28,426 nucleotides of DNA from a virus. Taxonomy: Duplodnaviria; Heunggongvirae; Uroviricota; Caudoviricetes. Both the position numbers and the translations under genes were made by a program. Below the pieces are notes generated by a model that did not search any database, was not told the origin of the DNA, and saw only the letters and a program-made list of their open reading frames with translations. The first letter of the stretch is position 1. Every line of letters starts with the position of its first letter. The stretch is taken from IMG/VR virus record IMGVR_UViG_2913123054_000008. The stretch is one strand, 5' to 3'. Shown here piece by piece: positions 16,626 through 24,104 of this stretch.

Positions 16626-18395
16626 ATGACCATTTCCACCGATACAACCTTGTTGCATGACCCGCGACGGCAGGCATCGCTGCTTTACTGGCAGGGTTTT
16701 TCCGTGCCACAGATTGCCGAAATGCTGCAGGTCAAGCGCCCGACCGTGCAGAGCTGGAAGCAGCGCGACGGCTGGGACGGCATCGCGCCGATTTCCCGCG
16801 TTGAAAGCAGCCTTGAGGCTAGGCTGATTCAGCTCATCGCCAAGCCGCAAAAGACAGGGGGTGATTTCAAAGAGATTGACCTGCTCGGACGGCAGATTGA
16901 ACGGTTGGCGCGAGTCAACCGCTACAGCCAGACCGGCAACGAAGCCGACCTTAACCCCAACGTCGCCAACCGCAACAAAGGGGAGCGCAAAAAGCCGAAA
17001 AAGAATTTTTTCAGCGACGAGGCTATCGATAAACTAGAGGAATTATTTTTCGACCAGTCTTTCGAGTACCAGTTGCAGTGGTACCGCGCAGGACTGGAGC
17101 ACCGTATTCGTGACATTCTCAAATCCCGCCAGATTGGCGCGACATTCTATTTCTCCCGCGAGGCACTGCTGCGCGCACTCAAAACCGGCCATAACCAGAT
17201 ATTTTTATCAGCCAGTAAAACGCAGGCTTACGTGTTCCGCGAATACATCATCCAGTTTGCGCGACTGGTCGACGTTGACCTGACTGGCGACCCGATTGTC
17301 ATCGGTAACAACGGCGCAAAACTGATTTTTCTCGGTACCAATTCCAACACCGCGCAGAGCCATAACGGCGATCTGTATGTCGATGAAATATTCTGGATCC
17401 CGAATTTTCAGAAACTGCGCAAAGTCGCCTCGGGCATGGCCTCGCAAAAGCACCTGCGCTCGACCTATTTTTCGACACCTTCCACGCTGGCGCACGGCGC
17501 TTACCCCTTCTGGTCTGGCGAGCTGTTCAACAAGGGGCGCAGCCGGATTGCCGACCGCATCGAAATCGACATCAGTCACAGCGCGCTCGCCGGTGGCCAG
17601 CTCTGCGACGATGGCCAGTGGCGGCAGATTGTCACCATTGAGGACGCCCTTGCGGGTGGCTGCACCCTGTTCGACCTCGACCAGCTCAAATGCGAAAACA
17701 GTGATGAGGACTTTAAGAACCTGTTTATGTGCGAGTTTGTCGACGATAAAGCGTCGGTATTCCCGTTCGAGGAGCTGCAGCGCTGCATGGTCGATGTGAT
17801 GGAGGAATGGGAGGACTTTGCCCCGTTCGCCGACCATCCGTTCGGCTCTCGTCCTGTCTGGATTGGCTACGACCCGTCACACACCGGCGACAGTGCCGGG
17901 TGCGTCGTGCTCGCGCCGCCGGTGGTCTCTGGTGGCAAGTTCCGCATGCTGGAGCGCCACCAGTGGAAGGGCATGGATTTTGCAGCACAGGCAGAGGGCA
18001 TCCGCAAGCTGACCGAGAAATACAACGTCGAATACATCGGCATTGACGCAACCGGCCTCGGTCTCGGCGTGTTCCAGCTGGTGCGCTCATTTTACCCGTC
18101 GGCACGCGGCATCCGTTACACACCTGAAATGAAAACCGCAATGGTACTCAAGGCGAAAGACACCATTCGCCGTGGCTGTCTGGAGTACGACGCCGGAGCA
18201 ACCGACGTCACGCAGTCGTTTATGTCCATCCGCAAAACCATGACCAGCAGCGGGCGCAGCGCCACCTATGAGGCCAGCCGCACCGAGGAAGCCAGCCACG
18301 CCGATATCGCATGGGCGACCATGCACGCCCTGTTAAACGAACCGCTTTCTGCCGGTAGCGGCATGCAGCCTAAATCTATTCTGGAGTTCAACTAA
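16626..18395 (+). CDS. P: terminase large (ATPase) subunit P
   Basis: 589 aa; size and synteny with the downstream portal gene. Confidence 0.9.
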   Translation: MTISTDTTLLHDPRRQASLLYWQGFSVPQIAEMLQVKRPTVQSWKQRDGWDGIAPISRVESSLEARLIQLIAKPQKTGGDFKEIDLLGRQIERLARVNRYSQTGNEADLNPNVANRNKGERKKPKKNFFSDEAIDKLEELFFDQSFEYQLQWYRAGLEHRIRDILKSRQIGATFYFSREALLRALKTGHNQIFLSASKTQAYVFREYIIQFARLVDVDLTGDPIVIGNNGAKLIFLGTNSNTAQSHNGDLYVDEIFWIPNFQKLRKVASGMASQKHLRSTYFSTPSTLAHGAYPFWSGELFNKGRSRIADRIEIDISHSALAGGQLCDDGQWRQIVTIEDALAGGCTLFDLDQLKCENSDEDFKNLFMCEFVDDKASVFPFEELQRCMVDVMEEWEDFAPFADHPFGSRPVWIGYDPSHTGDSAGCVVLAPPVVSGGKFRMLERHQWKGMDFAAQAEGIRKLTEKYNVEYIGIDATGLGLGVFQLVRSFYPSARGIRYTPEMKTAMVLKAKDTIRRGCLEYDAGATDVTQSFMSIRKTMTSSGRSATYEASRTEEASHADIAWATMHALLNEPLSAGSGMQPKSILEFN

Positions 18396-18396
18396 A

Positions 18397-19443
18397 ATGG
18401 GTAAACAAAAATCCCGTAAAGCCAACGCACAAAAGGCCAGCAAACCACAACAACTGACCGCCAGCGCACCGCCAAAAACGACAGCGTTCACCTTCGGCGA
18501 GCCGGTGCCGGTACTCGATAAGCGCGACATTCTGGATTACGTCGAGTGCATCAGTAACGGCAAATGGTACGAGCCGCCGGTCAGCTTCTCAGGGCTGGCA
18601 AAGAGCCTGCGCTCTGCCGTGCATCACAGCTCGCCAATTTATGTTAAGCGTAACGTGCTCGCGAGCACCTACATTCCGCACCCGTTGTTATCCCGTCAGG
18701 ATTTCAGCCGCTTTGCGCTCGATTATCTGGTGTTCGGTAACGCCTTTCTTGAGCAGCGCCACAGCGTCACCGGCCAGTTAATCAAACTGCTGGCCTCGCC
18801 AGCCAAATATACCCGACGCGGAGTCGACGATTCGATTTTCTGGTTTGTGGAAAACTTCACCCAGCCGCACGAGTTCGCGCCTGATACCGTGTTTCACCTG
18901 CTGGAGCCCGACATTAATCAGGAGATTTACGGTCTGCCGGAATATCTCAGCGCGCTTAATTCCGCTTGGCTGAATGAATCCGCGACGCTGTTCCGCCGCA
19001 AGTATTATCAGAACGGCGCGCACGCAGGCTACATCATGTATGTGACTGACCCGGCGCAAAGTGCGACCGACGTCGAATCGCTGCGCGAGGCGATGCGTAA
19101 CTCGAAGGGACTCGGCAACTTTAAGAACCTGTTTTTCTACGCCCCCGGCGGAAAACCGGACGGCATCAAAATCGTGCCACTGAGCGAGGTCGCCACAAAG
19201 GATGACTTTTTCAACATTAAGAAAGCCAGCGCCGCCGACCTGATGGACGCGCACCGCGTGCCGTTCCAGCTCATGGGCGGCAAGCCCGAGAATATCGGTT
19301 CACTCGGTGACGTTGAGAAGGTGGCAAAGGTATTTGTGCGTAATGAGCTGTCACCCCTGCAGGATAGGTTCAGGGAGGTAAACGACTGGCTCGGTATGGA
19401 GGTCATCAGGTTCAAAGAGTACACACTCGACAACTTGGAATAA
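18397..19443 (+). CDS. Q: portal protein Q
   Basis: 348 aa; starts 1 nt after the P stop; followed by a terminator and the cos region as in P2. Confidence 0.9.
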   Translation: MGKQKSRKANAQKASKPQQLTASAPPKTTAFTFGEPVPVLDKRDILDYVECISNGKWYEPPVSFSGLAKSLRSAVHHSSPIYVKRNVLASTYIPHPLLSRQDFSRFALDYLVFGNAFLEQRHSVTGQLIKLLASPAKYTRRGVDDSIFWFVENFTQPHEFAPDTVFHLLEPDINQEIYGLPEYLSALNSAWLNESATLFRRKYYQNGAHAGYIMYVTDPAQSATDVESLREAMRNSKGLGNFKNLFFYAPGGKPDGIKIVPLSEVATKDDFFNIKKASAADLMDAHRVPFQLMGGKPENIGSLGDVEKVAKVFVRNELSPLQDRFREVNDWLGMEVIRFKEYTLDNLE

Positions 19444-19481: not shown

Positions 19482-19706
19482 TTAGCCTTTAGACTTTTTA
19501 GGATCATCTTTTCTCTGATAAGTGCGTTCTTCCTGAATTTTCCCATCTTCCTTGTGAATTTTGACCGAACCTGTTTTGTTCGACATAAACTCAGATGTTG
19601 TTTTAATCAGCTCGGCCTTTGTGGTCGCGGTCTTGCTAGGGCGGTCATTGCCCTCTTTTTGCAACTTCCACTTATCGCCATCTTTTGTAATATGATAGTT
19701 ATCCAT
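19482..19706 (-). CDS. small hypothetical protein (DUF2188-like moron between Q and cos)
   Basis: 74 aa from MDNYHITKDGDKWKLQKEGNDRPSK... with a GGAGG RBS; low-GC; the motif pattern (DGxW, KEG, HxxDGKIQ) recalls DUF2188-type small proteins from memory only. Confidence 0.5.
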   Translation of the reverse strand: MDNYHITKDGDKWKLQKEGNDRPSKTATTKAELIKTTSEFMSNKTGSVKIHKEDGKIQEERTYQRKDDPKKSKG

Positions 19707-19910
19707 TAAAGCCTCCAACTGTTGTGGGGAACATAAAGTCTCAATATGGATATTAGCCAAAGCGAAACCGTAAAATTGTGCAACTGATCCCATCCTTTAG
19801 CACCACGCCACAGACGCACCATGCGCCCACGATCACACCCGGCCACTACAGCGCCGTCACGACGTTCTCAGACGATAATTTTTAATAATACGCACCACCG
19901 CTGGCGCGCA

Positions 19911-19929
19911 ATGCTTTCCCCGCCACGCC
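19911..19929. other. cos site (19 nt cohesive-end sequence, P2/186 type)
   Basis: The reverse complement of 19911-19929 reads GGCGTGGCGGGGAAAGCAT, which matches my recollection of the 186 cohesive end and differs at two positions from P2; it sits where cos is expected, just past the Q 3' end. Confidence 0.6.
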
Positions 19930-20253
19930 TGCCCGCTTTATGGAGCGGTTTTAATGCAGTTGCATGACTACTCTGGATCCGCTTCAGCTCTGGCGGCGCA
20001 CGGCCAGAACGGGCAATCCCGGCGCATGCAAAACCATGCACCTGTTGCATGCACGACTAAAAAACGGGGTAATCGCGGAAAAATGGCATAAAAAAATCGG
20101 CATTCACGGTGCCGGTTTGGGGCTGGTTTTATCACGATTACTGGCGCGCAATGCGCCAATAACACTATTGAGGCACATGCTGGCAACAATCACCAGAAAA
20201 ATCGTCGTCCACGGATTTTCATAACAAGAGATAACATATTGATATAGATCCTT

Positions 20254-20445
20254 TTATTTGTGCATTCTGATGTGGTTTAACAAGTGTTTGATAACGACCG
20301 TAAGCTCATCTTTATTGGCTTGCTCGACCATTTTTTCGGTGTAGCTTTCCACCTCACGAGAACTCAGGTCGTTATTTGAAGCCATTACAGTCAGCTTTTT
20401 TGCCCAATCGGCAAACGGGTCTATTGATGAAAGGGAATTAAGCAT
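20254..20445 (-). CDS. small hypothetical protein, divergent from the 143 aa cargo gene (start uncertain)
   Basis: Open frame with helical/charged composition (…SREVESYTEKMVEQANKDELTVVIKHLLNHIRMHK); candidate starts at 20445 (GAGG RBS, 63 aa) or 20385 (43 aa). The 20445 start overlaps the ATG of the opposing gene. Confidence 0.3.
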   Translation of the reverse strand: MLNSLSSIDPFADWAKKLTVMASNNDLSSREVESYTEKMVEQANKDELTVVIKHLLNHIRMHK

Positions 20446-20875
20446 GTCCAAAAACCTCGAATTATTTAACCAGCAGACGGCGGAAATCTTTGCGGTGTTA
20501 TGGGATAACTTCCCGGTGCCACAGGTCATTACCTACGAAAAATTTAACGCCGCGCTACCTGATGACTACTTTGACCAACTTAACTCACCGGAAATGAAAG
20601 CACTGAATCAGTTGCGCAGTGTGGTTGAGGGTACATTCACTTTTCTCAGTGAAAACGGCTACATCCAGTACGGAACAGACCACCAGACCTATTTTTATGA
20701 TGTGCGCCTGACCGAGAAAGCACTCGCCGTGCTTAACAAAAAGCCCGAGGCGCTCGGCGGTAATGAAACAATGGGCGATAAGATTATCAGTGCAGTGAAA
20801 GACGGGACGCCGGGAGTGATTGCCGGTGCGGTGACAAACCTGCTTACCCTCGGTGTCAATCTGGTAACCAGCTAA
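20444..20875 (+). CDS. hypothetical cargo protein, 143 aa, with a C-terminal glycine-zipper-like hydrophobic helix
   Basis: Clean ORF with an AAGGGA RBS-like element; low-GC relative to the core; C-terminus GTPGVIAGAVTNLLTLGVNLV contains a GxxxG pattern; no family recognised. Confidence 0.55.
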   Translation: MSKNLELFNQQTAEIFAVLWDNFPVPQVITYEKFNAALPDDYFDQLNSPEMKALNQLRSVVEGTFTFLSENGYIQYGTDHQTYFYDVRLTEKALAVLNKKPEALGGNETMGDKIISAVKDGTPGVIAGAVTNLLTLGVNLVTS

Positions 20876-20942
20876 CGCCTCGCGGGGCTCGTTGTTCAAC
20901 CCCGTCAGCACTGAAAGCGAGTTTCAGCGCTGACGACGTTTG

Positions 20943-21152
20943 CTATCGTCGACGTGGTGGAGGTGCGTATTTTGTCGGTCTGCTGATGCTATCCAGCTTG
21001 CCGCAATTATCCCTGACTATTTCGGCACACCCGACCAGCTCGGTGGGTGTCAAATTCTCATTGACCATTATCTGCTGCAGGCGATGAACGATAGCCATTA
21101 ACTTAATATTTCTGGTCTGGTGCTGCGGTATTTCACCTGGTAGTCGATGCAT
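20943..21152 (-). CDS. small hypothetical protein (69 aa)
   Basis: ORF with a good RBS (GAGGG, about 7 nt spacer) before the ATG; lies between two copies of a covarying hairpin repeat. Confidence 0.4.
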   Translation of the reverse strand: MHRLPGEIPQHQTRNIKLMAIVHRLQQIMVNENLTPTELVGCAEIVRDNCGKLDSISRPTKYAPPPRRR

Positions 21153-21351
21153 ATTATCACCCTCAATGAATTTTAATCAGTGCCGTCAAAACGCCACTAT
21201 AAAACCCTCTCAGGTCATGTCTCATTCATCACTGGCGTGTCATCAATAGCACATTGAGAAATTTTGAAAGGCAGGACTAAAGCCTCGTGGTCTCGTTACT
21301 CAACCCCGTCGACGCAAAAAGCTGGTTTTTGCGCCAACACGGTTATCATGT

Positions 21352-21582
21352 TTAACGCCAGCTATCGTCTTCCCAAATCTCTTGTAATATGCCGCTTAAT
21401 GTTTCTTTGTCTGCTTCTTTATCGAATCCGATAACCTCTACACCAGTCATTGACCCTTTCTTGACGTTAACTTTTATTGCTGGAAAAACGCATTGTACTC
21501 GATGTGTTATTTCATTCTGAAAAGCATCAATGATCTGTTGCCCTAATTTTTGTTCTTTATCCAACGTGATATTGATTCTCAT
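21352..21582 (-). CDS. dinI: DinI-family protein (DNA-damage-inducible protein I-like)
   Basis: 76 aa; MRINITLDKEQKLGQQIIDAFQNEITHRVQCVFP...VIGFDKEADKETLSGILQEIWEDDSW aligns by eye with E. coli DinI along its length; downstream of an SOS box. Confidence 0.8.
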   Translation of the reverse strand: MRINITLDKEQKLGQQIIDAFQNEITHRVQCVFPAIKVNVKKGSMTGVEVIGFDKEADKETLSGILQEIWEDDSWR

Positions 21583-21881: not shown

Positions 21882-24104
21882 TTACTCTGATATTGGTTTT
21901 GATGCTTCAGCTATCGCAGCAACACGATTAAGGATTTTCCTGGCTTTAGCCTCATGCGATGGTGCTGTGGAAAATATTTCTCCTTTGGCCGTTCCGCGTA
22001 GCCATTTACCATCAAAACAACTTTTACCACCGGCCATCAGGTGCAGAGCTTCGCCCCGGCTGATATTAATGCCGGTTGTCAAATGTATCTCTTCGATAGT
22101 TTTCGCTATAGCTGCGTTTTGCTCATCCGTTCCGTGGACGAATTTTCGCCGTGCTGCTGGCTTTTGCTTCCTGAGTCGGTTGGTCAACTCTCGTCTTTCA
22201 CGCCGACTCAGTGGTTTTGTTAAATCCAGTATCGGTGGATCGCTTTCGCTTCCCGTACAGTTATTGACAGAACTCCGAGGGACGGCTTTGCCGTCCTGAA
22301 GGTCAACGGCCAAATCAACAGCACGCTTCGGAACAATCTTCCACTGAGTGAGCCGGGTTAAAATCGGACTCCCTGCACCTATGGAGGAATCGTAGACTCC
22401 CTTAATACATACCGTTTCCTCACCGTACTGATTAAGCTCGGTACGCGGTTCATACAGTGTGCGCACCTGTAAATCATCGCGACGGACAAACGGCCCACCC
22501 TGAGCATTAACATAACCAGCCCAGTCACCAGCGTCGGCGGCATCATGGACGGCGGCAAACTCAACGCTCAGTCCGTGCGCGGTTTCGGTATCAGCGAGGC
22601 GACGCAACTCACGGTAAACCGTCACCGGCGCACCACCGATAAACTGAAACTGACGGATGTGCCAGCGCGCAGCCCATGCTGAAACGGCGGGGGCTGTCTC
22701 TTTCAGTAGCTCACCGCTTTCATCATCGGTTTCACCATCGAGAGCATAACCGTCGATATTTTTTGAAATGTATTTAGCAACATAGCCTGTTGCGCTGCCT
22801 TTCTCCGGGTCAATGGACTCGGCGTGGAAACGTGCTTTTTTGGATTTATCGCTTTTCAGTTCGTGGCGGTCTTCTTTCCATGCGTATTTACGGACGATGG
22901 AGCGAACATATTCAACATCTTCCGGCAGCATGAACATCAGCATGTGCCAGTGTGGAGTGCCGTCGTGATGAGGCTCGGCGACACGAATACCGAAAATACG
23001 GACATCTTCCCGATGTAGTTTGGCACGGATACGCGCCCAGATACCGGTTAGATAGTTTTGCGTGTCAGCCGGGCTGGCACCGCTCCATTTGCTGTTACGG
23101 TAACCGGCTTTAGTCGTGGCGTGATATTTTGACGGCGCGGTTAGAGTGTAAAACTCACCGACATAACCGAGCTCATTACAGATGTTTTCAAACCCACGAA
23201 TGCGGGTCATGAGCTCACAGCGGCGAATCGCAGGGTTAGCAACTGAGCCATCATATTTTTCAATCAGGCTGATACGGTTGCCGTCTTCGTCTTCGAGATC
23301 CAGACCTTTGAGAAATTCACGAGTGCGGCGCTTTTGTTCACGCCAGTCAGTCACGCAGTTTTTACTCGCGTAAGTGTTTTTTTTCTTACTGACGTTGCCG
23401 ACTGCAATTTGCAGGTGTTCGCGCCACGTAGCTGCAACACGGCGCAAACGACCGCGCCACCACCCATCGTTAAACATTTTGGCGATAGCCGGTGCGATTT
23501 CATCCGCACCGACATATTTTTTTTCAACCCGCTCCCAATGTGGTGGGATAACGTTAAATTGGAGGGAAATAAAGCCAGCACGAATATACCAGGTGTACAG
23601 CGTTTTAAGCTCGCCGAATCCGTGGTCATTAATGTTGGCAAGTTCACCACGAATGAAATTAGCAATATCAGCGGCCAACAGGTCAACATCAGCGCGCGAC
23701 ATATCCGGGAGACGGTTATATCGGGCGACCATATTAACCATGCGTGACGACAGATATTGCATTTGCTGAGTATCAAAATGACTTCCAAAAACAGCGGTTG
23801 ATACCTTGCTGTTGATACCAGCGCATTCGTATTTTTTTGCGACCAGTTCAAGACGCGGCAATGCCTTTTTGCAGAAGTTGATTAAAAATGCATTGGCTCG
23901 TTGACTACCCTGATTTTGCTCCAGCACCGCAGCAGTGCGATAAACATCTAACCGCACGCAGTCGGGCTGGAGAGAAAGCACCTTTTTTGCATGCAGCAAA
24001 GCCGCGAACATACGGTCGCGGCGATGCTGTTGCTCATAAGTAAGGTATGGGCTGGAGATTGCCGACCGTGGGACGTTCCACGGATAAGCGAATTGAACAG
24101 CCAA
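21882..24104 (-). CDS. A: replication initiation protein A (rolling-circle endonuclease, gpA-like)
   Basis: 740 aa; contains TLTAPSKYH, HHDGTPHWHM and AKYISKNIDGYALDG motifs recalled from P2 gpA; last gene of the early operon. Confidence 0.9.
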   Translation of the reverse strand: MAVQFAYPWNVPRSAISSPYLTYEQQHRRDRMFAALLHAKKVLSLQPDCVRLDVYRTAAVLEQNQGSQRANAFLINFCKKALPRLELVAKKYECAGINSKVSTAVFGSHFDTQQMQYLSSRMVNMVARYNRLPDMSRADVDLLAADIANFIRGELANINDHGFGELKTLYTWYIRAGFISLQFNVIPPHWERVEKKYVGADEIAPAIAKMFNDGWWRGRLRRVAATWREHLQIAVGNVSKKKNTYASKNCVTDWREQKRRTREFLKGLDLEDEDGNRISLIEKYDGSVANPAIRRCELMTRIRGFENICNELGYVGEFYTLTAPSKYHATTKAGYRNSKWSGASPADTQNYLTGIWARIRAKLHREDVRIFGIRVAEPHHDGTPHWHMLMFMLPEDVEYVRSIVRKYAWKEDRHELKSDKSKKARFHAESIDPEKGSATGYVAKYISKNIDGYALDGETDDESGELLKETAPAVSAWAARWHIRQFQFIGGAPVTVYRELRRLADTETAHGLSVEFAAVHDAADAGDWAGYVNAQGGPFVRRDDLQVRTLYEPRTELNQYGEETVCIKGVYDSSIGAGSPILTRLTQWKIVPKRAVDLAVDLQDGKAVPRSSVNNCTGSESDPPILDLTKPLSRRERRELTNRLRKQKPAARRKFVHGTDEQNAAIAKTIEEIHLTTGINISRGEALHLMAGGKSCFDGKWLRGTAKGEIFSTAPSHEAKARKILNRVAAIAEASKPISE

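Follow-up and report, generated by a model that had tools for sequence, protein, structure and literature searches.

Introduction

Hairpins at operon ends and conserved module boundaries are kinds of feature that are already known. Among the hairpins, the 3'-end stabilisers, i.e. the REP/BIME stabilisers, the T7 RNase III sites and lambda sib, form a stable structure just past a stop codon, where the polymerase reads through them and they act in cis on the upstream message. A stem of ~19-20 bp with internal wobbles and a mismatch fits RNase III substrates. The terminators t95a and t95b of phage 186 are short GC hairpins followed by U runs. Integron attC sites, located at the 3' ends of promoter-less gene cassettes, are imperfect, strand-specific hairpins in tandem copies, with sharp junctions at the hairpin base, and their R' box has the consensus GTTRRRY. 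Module boundaries are exemplified by the "linkers" of mosaic phages (the modular theory of lambdoid phages), i.e. short conserved sequences with reassorting flanks.

A cos-proximal cargo hotspot of P2-like phages was reportedly treated by Nilsson et al. (2004). Dodd and Egan (1996) are likewise said to have described a hotspot, which one citing paper puts between cos and gpQ, i.e. on the other side of cos. The cos-proximal variable region of P2-like phages is referred to as the TO or gpA-gpQ hotspot (PMC9122126; PMC3091744). The locus, defined by gene content between gpA and gpQ, is among the best documented reservoirs of anti-phage systems, 18,150 E. coli loci having been resolved into 1,650 gene arrangements; an exchange route by way of the cos ends and a second homologous event is speculated upon, and experimental work is called for (PMC9122126). 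Keyword matches in the same text included no mention of stem-loop, hairpin, terminator or intergenic, and both matches to "repeat" concerned protein repeats (PMC9122126).

Here we describe a ~70-base structured element, termed E, which is kept by P2/186-like phages at the end of the early/SOS operon. In common with the 3'-end stabilisers it has a stable hairpin just past a stop codon, and both polymerase read-through and cis action on the upstream message are proposed for it as well; its 19-bp stem, with internal wobbles and a mismatch, and its 3' position fit an RNase III site or retroregulator. REP sequences, however, are multi-copy host repeats, whereas E is single-copy, phage-specific and provided with an extra, sequence-conserved tail. 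The 186 terminators lie in the same neighborhood and on the same transcript as E but are built differently, E consisting of a 19-bp hairpin without a U-tract on that strand and a 26-nt invariant tail. The imperfect, strand-specific hairpins, the tandem copies, the sharp junctions and the location at gene 3' ends all recall attC, although no IntI was noticed near E, E is without fixed extrahelical bases, its tail has no attC counterpart, and there are only 1-2 copies per genome. A short conserved sequence with reassorting flanks is also what the linkers are, but the structural covariation and strand asymmetry of E point to a function of its own, beyond a recombination footprint. As for the gpA-gpQ hotspot, E is situated within it and marks its inner border, towards the early operon. 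What distinguishes E is the combination of a covarying stem and an invariant tail at a fixed place, the edge of a major defence hotspot.

Genomic context of the repeat pair

The analysed stretch of 28,426 nucleotides (IMG/VR record IMGVR_UViG_2913123054_000008), hereafter the window, is part of a P2/186-like (Peduoviridae) prophage. According to the ORF list, the terminase large subunit (16626-18395) and the portal (18397-19443) are encoded on the plus strand. Next comes a 186-type cohesive-end sequence at 19910-19928 (no strand assigned), whose 19 nt are taken as the putative overhang of cos from their likeness to that of 186; from 19929 onward the window aligns with the right end of the linear 186 record. 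A hairpin with a T7 run on the minus strand (20098-20114), detected in the terminator scan, aligns with the t95b stretch of 186 and is its counterpart, and it constitutes the cos-side limit of the cargo interval. Within this interval, a 143-aa cargo ORF (phrog_2266) occupies 20444-20875 on the plus strand and converges on the first copy of E, E1, the TAA stop of the ORF being the TAA of E1's terminal CTAAC.

From the opposite side, the minus strand carries the replication gene gpA (21882-24104, ORF list), a DinI-like gene of the Tum C-terminal type (21352-21582; Pfam DinI, E-value 1.4e-18) and a 69-aa ORF, o69 (20943-21152, ORF list), which matches phrog_11386 in PHROGs (E-value 2e-44) and nothing in a Pfam search. 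A 60-aa ORF is also found on this strand. The diverged copy E2 (21275-21353, minus strand, delimited by the covariance model) has the DinI-like gene directly upstream in the direction of transcription. It is separated from o69 by a spacer (21153-21274, minus strand) that contains a sigma-70-like promoter match, GAGACA-16-TATAGT, with the -35 box at 21223-21218 and the -10 box at 21201-21196 (9/12 in the promoter scan, as a consensus match only). E1, delimited in the same way, covers 20870-20949 on the minus strand. The repeats consequently lie at the distal end of the early/SOS operon, facing the cos-proximal variable region. A relation of o69 to P2 Orf91/DUF3850, as a truncated form, was rejected, as the sequences are without similarity.

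The initial annotation had reported a pair of imperfect direct repeats of roughly 57 bp, bracketing the 69-aa ORF and sitting at gene ends. By a repeat search the pair was recovered at 20885-20930 and 21289-21334 (74% identity, spacing 404 nt), and the alignment survives formal comparison, as pairwise MAFFT extends the likeness to ~20872-20942 and 21276-21344, i.e. ~70 nt. The repeat is thus real, yet the element is larger than had been described, with a 19-bp stem and a 26-nt sequence-conserved tail. The copies do bracket o69 on the minus strand, E1 beginning 2 nt after the stop of o69 and E2 7 nt after that of the DinI-like gene. A search of all 28 kb for the core, CTCGTTNNTCAACCCCGTC, returned just these two occurrences, where 100 shuffles predict 0.00. 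Both hairpins, referred to as HP1, appear as inverted repeats with 19-nt arms and a 5-nt loop, at 20898-20940 in E1 (arms 20898-20916/20922-20940) and at 21302-21344 in E2 (arms 21302-21320/21326-21344); both are on the minus strand, and the stem is imperfect. The stem differences between the copies are compensatory, as had been claimed, but only the distal 6-7 bp of the 19-bp stems had been recognized. With a covariance model (R1) built from relatives, E1 scored 96.8 bits (E-value 2.6e-27) and E2 64.5 bits (E-value 1.3e-17), both on the minus strand, and no further copy above 10 bits was found in the window except the reverse reading of the same two hairpins.

Distribution of the element

A BLAST search of copy 1 against 50,697 phage records returned 85 records, all of them P2-like phages with 1-2 places each, from the hosts Escherichia, Salmonella, Klebsiella, Yersinia and Erwinia. 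The copy-2 variant was present in a single record; it occurs in vB_EcoM-613R3 and several IMG/VR loci. When IMG/VR was scanned for the exact core, 120 stretches were obtained. The flanking box, no part of the search pattern, accompanies the core in ~100 copies from 97 loci; the remaining core matches are chance occurrences in unrelated sequence. E has one and the same orientation in all 97 loci, between portal/cos and the end of the gpA operon. Another set, of 80 loci, was chosen by the portal protein alone and then scanned with the covariance model. E was found in 44 of these, invariably on the strand opposite to the portal and 0.4-3.7 kb beyond it, while it was absent from the other 36 and from P2 itself and is therefore dispensable.

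Among complete E. coli genomes, 506 out of 5426 harbor E, mostly once and never more than twice (median 1, maximum 2), and a strict-pattern scan detected it in 12 species, all Enterobacterales, with one copy each. Only P2/186-like (Peduoviridae) phages of Enterobacterales were found to carry the element. Far from being confined to this locus, E holds a fixed position throughout the P2/186-like family. A common host repeat at many unrelated loci, named in the initial annotation as the outcome that would overturn it, is not what was found, there being 1-2 copies per genome and only inside P2-like prophages, and a host repeat of the REP/BIME kind was rejected on copy number and on the P2-like phage context of all characterised copies.

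At gathering thresholds Rfam gave no matches in the whole window, and a permissive search of 20700-21500 returned only chance-level matches (E-values of at least 0.2). The records of 186, WPhi, PSP3 and P2-EC58 carry no annotation for E, and it was found in no database, record or paper checked, the literature having been covered by keyword.

Structure and covariation of the hairpin

Written as minus-strand RNA, E reads 5'-[AAC(G/C)CCG...19-bp stem, 5-nt loop...CGGGGUU]-G-[AACAACGAGC-nnn-GCGAGGCGUU]-AG-3', where the first bracket is HP1. The sequence of HP1 is variable and its pairing is kept. In the 71 distinct copies derived from the pattern search, 90.9% of the cells hold standard pairs, compared to 32-48% with slid partners, and nine pairs change on both sides. 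In the 47 distinct copies of the portal-anchored, unbiased set the proportion is 92.5%, compared to 36-52% with slid partners, and 15 of the 19 pairs change on both sides; none of 500 shuffles attained these values. The same helix was recovered independently by RNAalifold. Compensatory pairing beyond shuffled and slid controls, the generic criterion for a structured cis-regulatory RNA, is hence a property of HP1. Its fourth pair is commonly a G·G mismatch, with C-G, G-C, A-U or G·U as variants.

Several other readings of the sequence were discarded. An outer helix between AACGCC and GGCGUU of the tail is 93% paired without any covariation, whereas the competing HP1 pair covaries in the unbiased set, and the long hairpin is preferred for this reason. 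A pseudoknot between the HP1 loop (CUYGY) and AACGAG of the tail is, from a reading of the sequence, sterically implausible across a 19-bp stem and is lost in E2-type copies. An RfaH ops-like sequence, GGCGGTAG, is restricted to two variants (L097 and L120), the majority having T at the critical fifth base, and a Chi-like GCTGGCGG in the 3' arm is not conserved. A promoter within E was dismissed as well, the match TTGAAC-N17-GTTAGN being without the essential -10 bases.

Strand of action

When folded as RNA, the 71 variants have a mean energy of -27.4 kcal/mol on the minus strand and -18.0 kcal/mol on the plus strand, the minus strand being the more stable in 69 of them. The initial annotation had suspected selection for structure and had proposed folding both strands; the suspicion is borne out by this asymmetry together with the covariation in both the pattern-based and the portal-based set, and the folding singles out the minus strand as the stable one. 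At three stem positions of HP1, G·U is more frequent than any other state and would become an A·C mismatch on the plus strand, which is why the minus-strand fold is the stable one; likewise, the tandem G·A of CGAG/CGAG in the tail would turn into C·U mismatches. The minus-strand 111-nt region of E1 folds at -46.1 kcal/mol (z = -4.5) and the minus-strand region of E2 at -34.2 kcal/mol (z = -3.3). Folded as DNA, the E1 hairpin reaches -17.0 on the minus and -12.6 on the plus strand, and the E2 hairpin -14.2 and -9.0, respectively.

Since gpA, tum/DinI, o69 and orf97 are all read from the minus strand as sense, E should be part of their transcript. The nick-site sequence of gpA (22264-22283), annotated as ori in P2, likewise belongs to the minus strand, and the strand displaced in rolling-circle replication consequently has the same polarity as the fold of E. 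Judged from the sequence, E may thus act either as part of the early-operon message or in the DNA displaced during replication, and the strand asymmetry fits both equally. An ori-like nature of E itself, i.e. a gpA nick site, was rejected; all that E has in common with the P2 ori is CGCCTCG...TGT(T)CAA, differently spaced and located on the opposite strand, and 66 loci have the ori core C(C/T)TCGGAGTYCTGTCAATAAC conserved within gpA.

A function in the displaced strand would make E a single-strand DNA initiation signal, whose hairpins recruit lagging-strand priming or helicase loading during gpA-driven rolling-circle replication. The displaced strand is indeed the one in which E folds, E would be exposed 0.9-1.3 kb after initiation, and the hairpins are stable as displaced-strand DNA as well (-14 to -17 kcal/mol, z about -5). 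Moreover, ssi signals are usually built of a hairpin and a conserved flank that is single-stranded. We nevertheless hold this reading to be improbable. E is missing from P2 and from ~45% of the sampled relatives with the same gpA-type replication, its packing 2-9 nt from stop codons and its travelling with gene modules suggest a feature of the transcript, three G·T wobbles are costly in a 19-bp DNA stem, and E is not known to resemble primosome assembly sites.

Transcription context

E starts 2-9 nt past the stop codons of at least five unrelated upstream genes (DinI types, o69 types, orf97 of 186 and others). In every copy, HP1 is followed on the minus strand by GAACAACG, without a single U, so that the U run of an intrinsic terminator is lacking there. 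On the plus strand, the terminator scan calls no site with a stem and a T-run at either copy. The earlier statements that the copies have no U-tract and are not canonical intrinsic terminators accordingly stand for the strand on which they fold best, while the plus-strand tails are only moderately T-rich. In phage 186, E is found between orf97 and the annotated terminator of the p95 transcript, t95b, which follows 22 nt further on, whereas t95a follows tum, the place that E2 takes in the window. The missing U-tract and the position of t95b 22 nt beyond E imply that the polymerase reads through the element. Relatives without E have ordinary hairpin-and-U terminators at the equivalent position (e.g. 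L174, of the t95a type, L157, and the AT-rich hairpin that P2 has between orf91 and tin). Where co-directional cargo starts 1-41 nt past E, which leaves no room for a promoter, E behaves like an intercistronic element or 5' leader and not like a 3' end.

As an alternative, E would work on the plus strand, as a terminator or insulator and hence as a bidirectional boundary, keeping convergent cargo transcription (from the 143-aa ORF here or from old-tin in P2) and late read-through from P-Q out of tum and gpA, where they would be antisense. The 143-aa ORF ends inside E1, which is then the only hairpin available to end its transcript, and phages devoid of E have true terminators at this very spot. 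Furthermore, the GC-rich lower stem keeps its pairing on the plus strand, and the sequence past the hairpin is T-rich, 36 distinct tails having on average 4.4 T in 8 nt (25% background). Two of these T's are, however, fixed stem bases, and the complements of stop codons inflate the T content. The scan, as noted above, calls no terminator on the plus strand, the commonest variant would have 3-4 A·C mismatches in its plus-strand hairpin, and the wobble asymmetry shows selection on the minus-strand fold. In addition, many loci are without an adjacent plus-strand gene, a minus-strand ORF being the closest one in 41 of the 69 distinct left flanks, and the invariant tail would lie upstream of the hairpin, where no terminator model needs it. 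Taken together, plus-strand termination seems unlikely to us as the function of E, which may still contribute in a secondary way to the ending of convergent cargo transcripts.

The conserved tail

The tail of E1 (20872-20897, minus strand) is CTAACGCCTCGCGGGGCTCGTTGTTC when read on the plus strand and GAACAACGAGC-nnn-GCGAGGCGUUAG as RNA, with a Shine-Dalgarno-like GAGG inside. Its 26 nt are nearly invariant across the 71 and the 47 distinct relatives, and they are unchanged even where portal and terminase are only 31-37% identical to those of the window, although HP1 differs there. We conclude from this that the tail is under constraint of sequence and HP1 under constraint of shape. That the tail is coding sequence was rejected because indels in nnn break every reading frame, and no complementary target for it was found above chance elsewhere in the window. 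As a plain exonuclease barrier does not account for an invariant tail of 26 nt, a partner, protein or RNA, is implied.

By RNAalifold, AAC/GUU, C-G and GC/GC pairs were placed around the variable nnn. The tail may therefore fold as a second small hairpin, HP2, with nnn as its loop and CGAG/CGAG forming a tandem G·A motif. In this candidate structure six Watson-Crick pairs are conserved, 61% of the cells hold standard pairs and only two pairs change on both sides. The tandem G·A/A·G, present in 35 sequences, is replaced by U-A/C-G (CUCGC/GCGAG) in 8-9 others. GAGG would be situated in the 3' strand of HP2.

The cargo junction and the two-copy layout

In almost all of ~90 related loci, homology to the window begins at 20871/20872, the other breakpoint being at 20940-20945 or, in P2-type phages, at the o69 ATG (21152). 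As many as 51 different sequences abut the CTAAC end. Clustering of 80-nt flanks gave 36 left and 25 right classes in 55 combinations, nine left classes having several partners on the right and seven right classes several on the left. The copies thus lie at a junction where the cargo differs among related phages, in line with the cargo boundary that had been suggested for them. Within HP1 itself no crossovers were detected (0 four-gamete quartets). E is the only sequence on this side of the hotspot that is common to otherwise diverged phages, which makes it a fixed junction and a plausible homology anchor.

Cargo ORFs adjoin E in both orientations. The TAA of E serves as the stop codon of the 143-aa ORF in the window and of a 296-aa ORF in another locus (L012), but the idea of a generally shared cargo stop was given up, as it is true in only two of the 51 flank classes. 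In the other orientation, a conserved 85-93-aa ORF starts 2-3 nt after GTTAG in three loci (L013, L027 and L084) and a 219-aa ORF 1 nt after it in two (L033 and L115), and the GAGG of the tail then lies 7-9 nt upstream of the ATG, as a Shine-Dalgarno sequence would. These ORFs, together with the GAGG within the 3' strand of the candidate HP2, are what speaks for E as the 5' leader of a downstream gene, or a descendant of one, in which HP2 hides the ribosome binding site; the gene would have been replaced in most E. coli phages while E persisted. This is very improbable in our opinion, as most copies have no ORF starting there and the tail is still invariant across 51 flank types, whereas a relic would decay.

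The sharpness of the junction also recalls site-specific exchange, with E as a DNA recombination site whose folded hairpin and core are used by a recombinase in the manner of attC, or by an HUH nuclease, to swap cargo at the edge. Both edges fall on the same nucleotide for dozens of unrelated flanks, cargo ORFs of both orientations abut E precisely and share its TAA stop or its GAGG, the layout includes tandem modules of a gene and a 3' hairpin, and folding is strand-specific with a conserved mismatch. On reading the sequence, the 3' base of HP1, GTTGAAC, fits the R' consensus of attC. The R'' half of the attC core is, however, unmatched: the complementary RYYYAAC is missing, only AAC/GUU pair, and the four positions 5' of AAC are variable and show no complementarity to GAAC. 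The mismatch becomes C-G, G-C, A-U or G·U in variants and hence offers no fixed extrahelical base. No integron-type integrase or dedicated recombinase was noticed among the window ORFs near E or in the flank analysis, and the likeness of the box to the gpA nick site is weak and on the wrong strand. Since the tin-old insertion of P2 removed E altogether, junctions are not always at E, and edges of this sharpness would arise just as well at any border between constrained and unconstrained sequence. A recombination site consequently appears quite unlikely. Its most specific form, i.e. that E is a dedicated docking site at which a phage or host enzyme recognises the folded hairpin and the invariant core and swaps cassettes at an exact nucleotide by cos, we would regard as highly doubtful.

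The layout DinI-E2-spacer-o69-E1 was identified with the covariance model in at least 15 loci, with the copies ~404-405 nt apart, and in two-copy loci the spacer that separates E2 from o69 is conserved along with the ORF itself. In P2-type phages o69 and E close the operon without a second copy. The two copies in the window are therefore attributed to a module, consisting of the promoter-like spacer, o69 and its own E, downstream of a DinI-associated E. The small ORF cassette proposed for the space between the repeats is in this way retained in altered form, as a recurrent module that includes one of the copies.

Discussion

With regard to the 186 terminators, E2 takes the position of t95a, and in 186 the E1-type copy lies 22 nt upstream of t95b, on the same transcript. 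From the family, its position, structure, strand and junction, which are matters of observation, we infer RNA stabilisation or processing, and homology-driven cargo exchange at the junction. Our tentative preference, held at somewhat less than an even chance, is that E is a cis-acting RNA structure in the early/SOS transcript that fixes or protects its 3' end, and that it is incidentally a cargo junction and a plausible homology anchor. The RNA polymerase would pass through E, there being no U-tract, and the folded RNA would then set or shield the message's 3' end, by holding up exonucleases or by being a site of processing. The expression of the replication and antirepressor genes would thereby be freed from whatever cargo lies beyond E, and the homology of E could serve as an anchor for the exchange of cargo at the junction.

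E provides a discrete, conserved landmark at the inner edge of the hotspot, common to phages whose neighboring sequences have diverged beyond DNA homology, and with it a precise coordinate by which cargo can be delimited better than by gene calls. With its ~70 bp it is also a concrete candidate for a homology or recognition site in cargo exchange. If the docking-site reading were true, P2-like phages would own an integron-like acquisition platform, which would explain the very high turnover of their defence systems. Should E be only a 3' stabiliser, the result would be a modest one, still useful in annotation. In the biology of the P2/186-like phages themselves, E is a candidate cis-regulatory RNA motif for the expression of the replication genes and of the antirepressor (tum), and therefore for induction.

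Cargo genes adjoining the structured element

Next to E1, the copy of the structured element E that lies 3' of the 69-aa ORF (window 20870-20949, minus strand), the variable cargo consists of a head-to-head gene pair within positions 20254-20875, in which a phrog_2454 protein of about 64 aa is encoded on the minus strand and a phrog_2266 protein of 143 aa on the plus strand. The same pair was found in other phages (loci L037/L062, L087 and L100) at 93-98% identity and, with the window included, it adjoins four different variants of E and four different right-flank genes (early-operon side of the element). In three loci from more distant P2-like phages (L013, L027 and L084), a minus-strand gene that starts 2-3 nt past E and terminates just short of cos encodes a small conserved protein (85-93 aa) whose motif is YQ(I/V)V(Y/F)...PGG(W/L)V.FQR. 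E is flanked by ORF85 and a reverse-transcriptase gene in P2-EC58, and by orf92 and a cytosine methylase in WPhi; the reverse transcriptase and the methylase are further cases of defence-type cargo beginning at E.

A second small variable slot is situated on the opposite side of cos from E, between portal and cos. In the window it is occupied by a 103-aa DUF2188 protein (19482-19793, minus strand), with a hit (E 1e-14) to PDC-S16, a candidate defence family in PADLOC.

Probable replication origin and other sequence motifs

Within gpA, the sequence GTCCCTCGGAGTTCTGTCAA (22264-22283, minus strand) resembles the nick-site region of the P2 origin, from which it differs by three mismatches, and the origin core CYTCGGAGTYCTGTCAATAAC is kept within gpA in 66 related loci. 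This site probably serves as the phage's origin of replication. On the plus strand, the box of E (20876-20899) was also considered as an origin-like sequence, as it has CGCCTCG...TGT(T)CAA in common with the P2 nick region (positions 2884-2910 of the P2 record). However, the box is not on the strand that carries the real origin, and its spacing is unlike that of P2; the likeness is probably due to chance.

The tail of E carries GGCGGTAG in two divergent copies (L097 and L120), where the usual form is GGCGTTAG; over its first 8 bases, the RfaH ops element is identical to this variant.

Lastly, a terminator-like hairpin with a T run (CCGAGCGCCTCGG GCTTTTTGTT) is found on the minus strand at 20745-20757, within the 143-aa ORF, roughly 115 nt beyond E1 in the downstream direction. 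Were this hairpin functional, transcripts reading through E1 could end at it.
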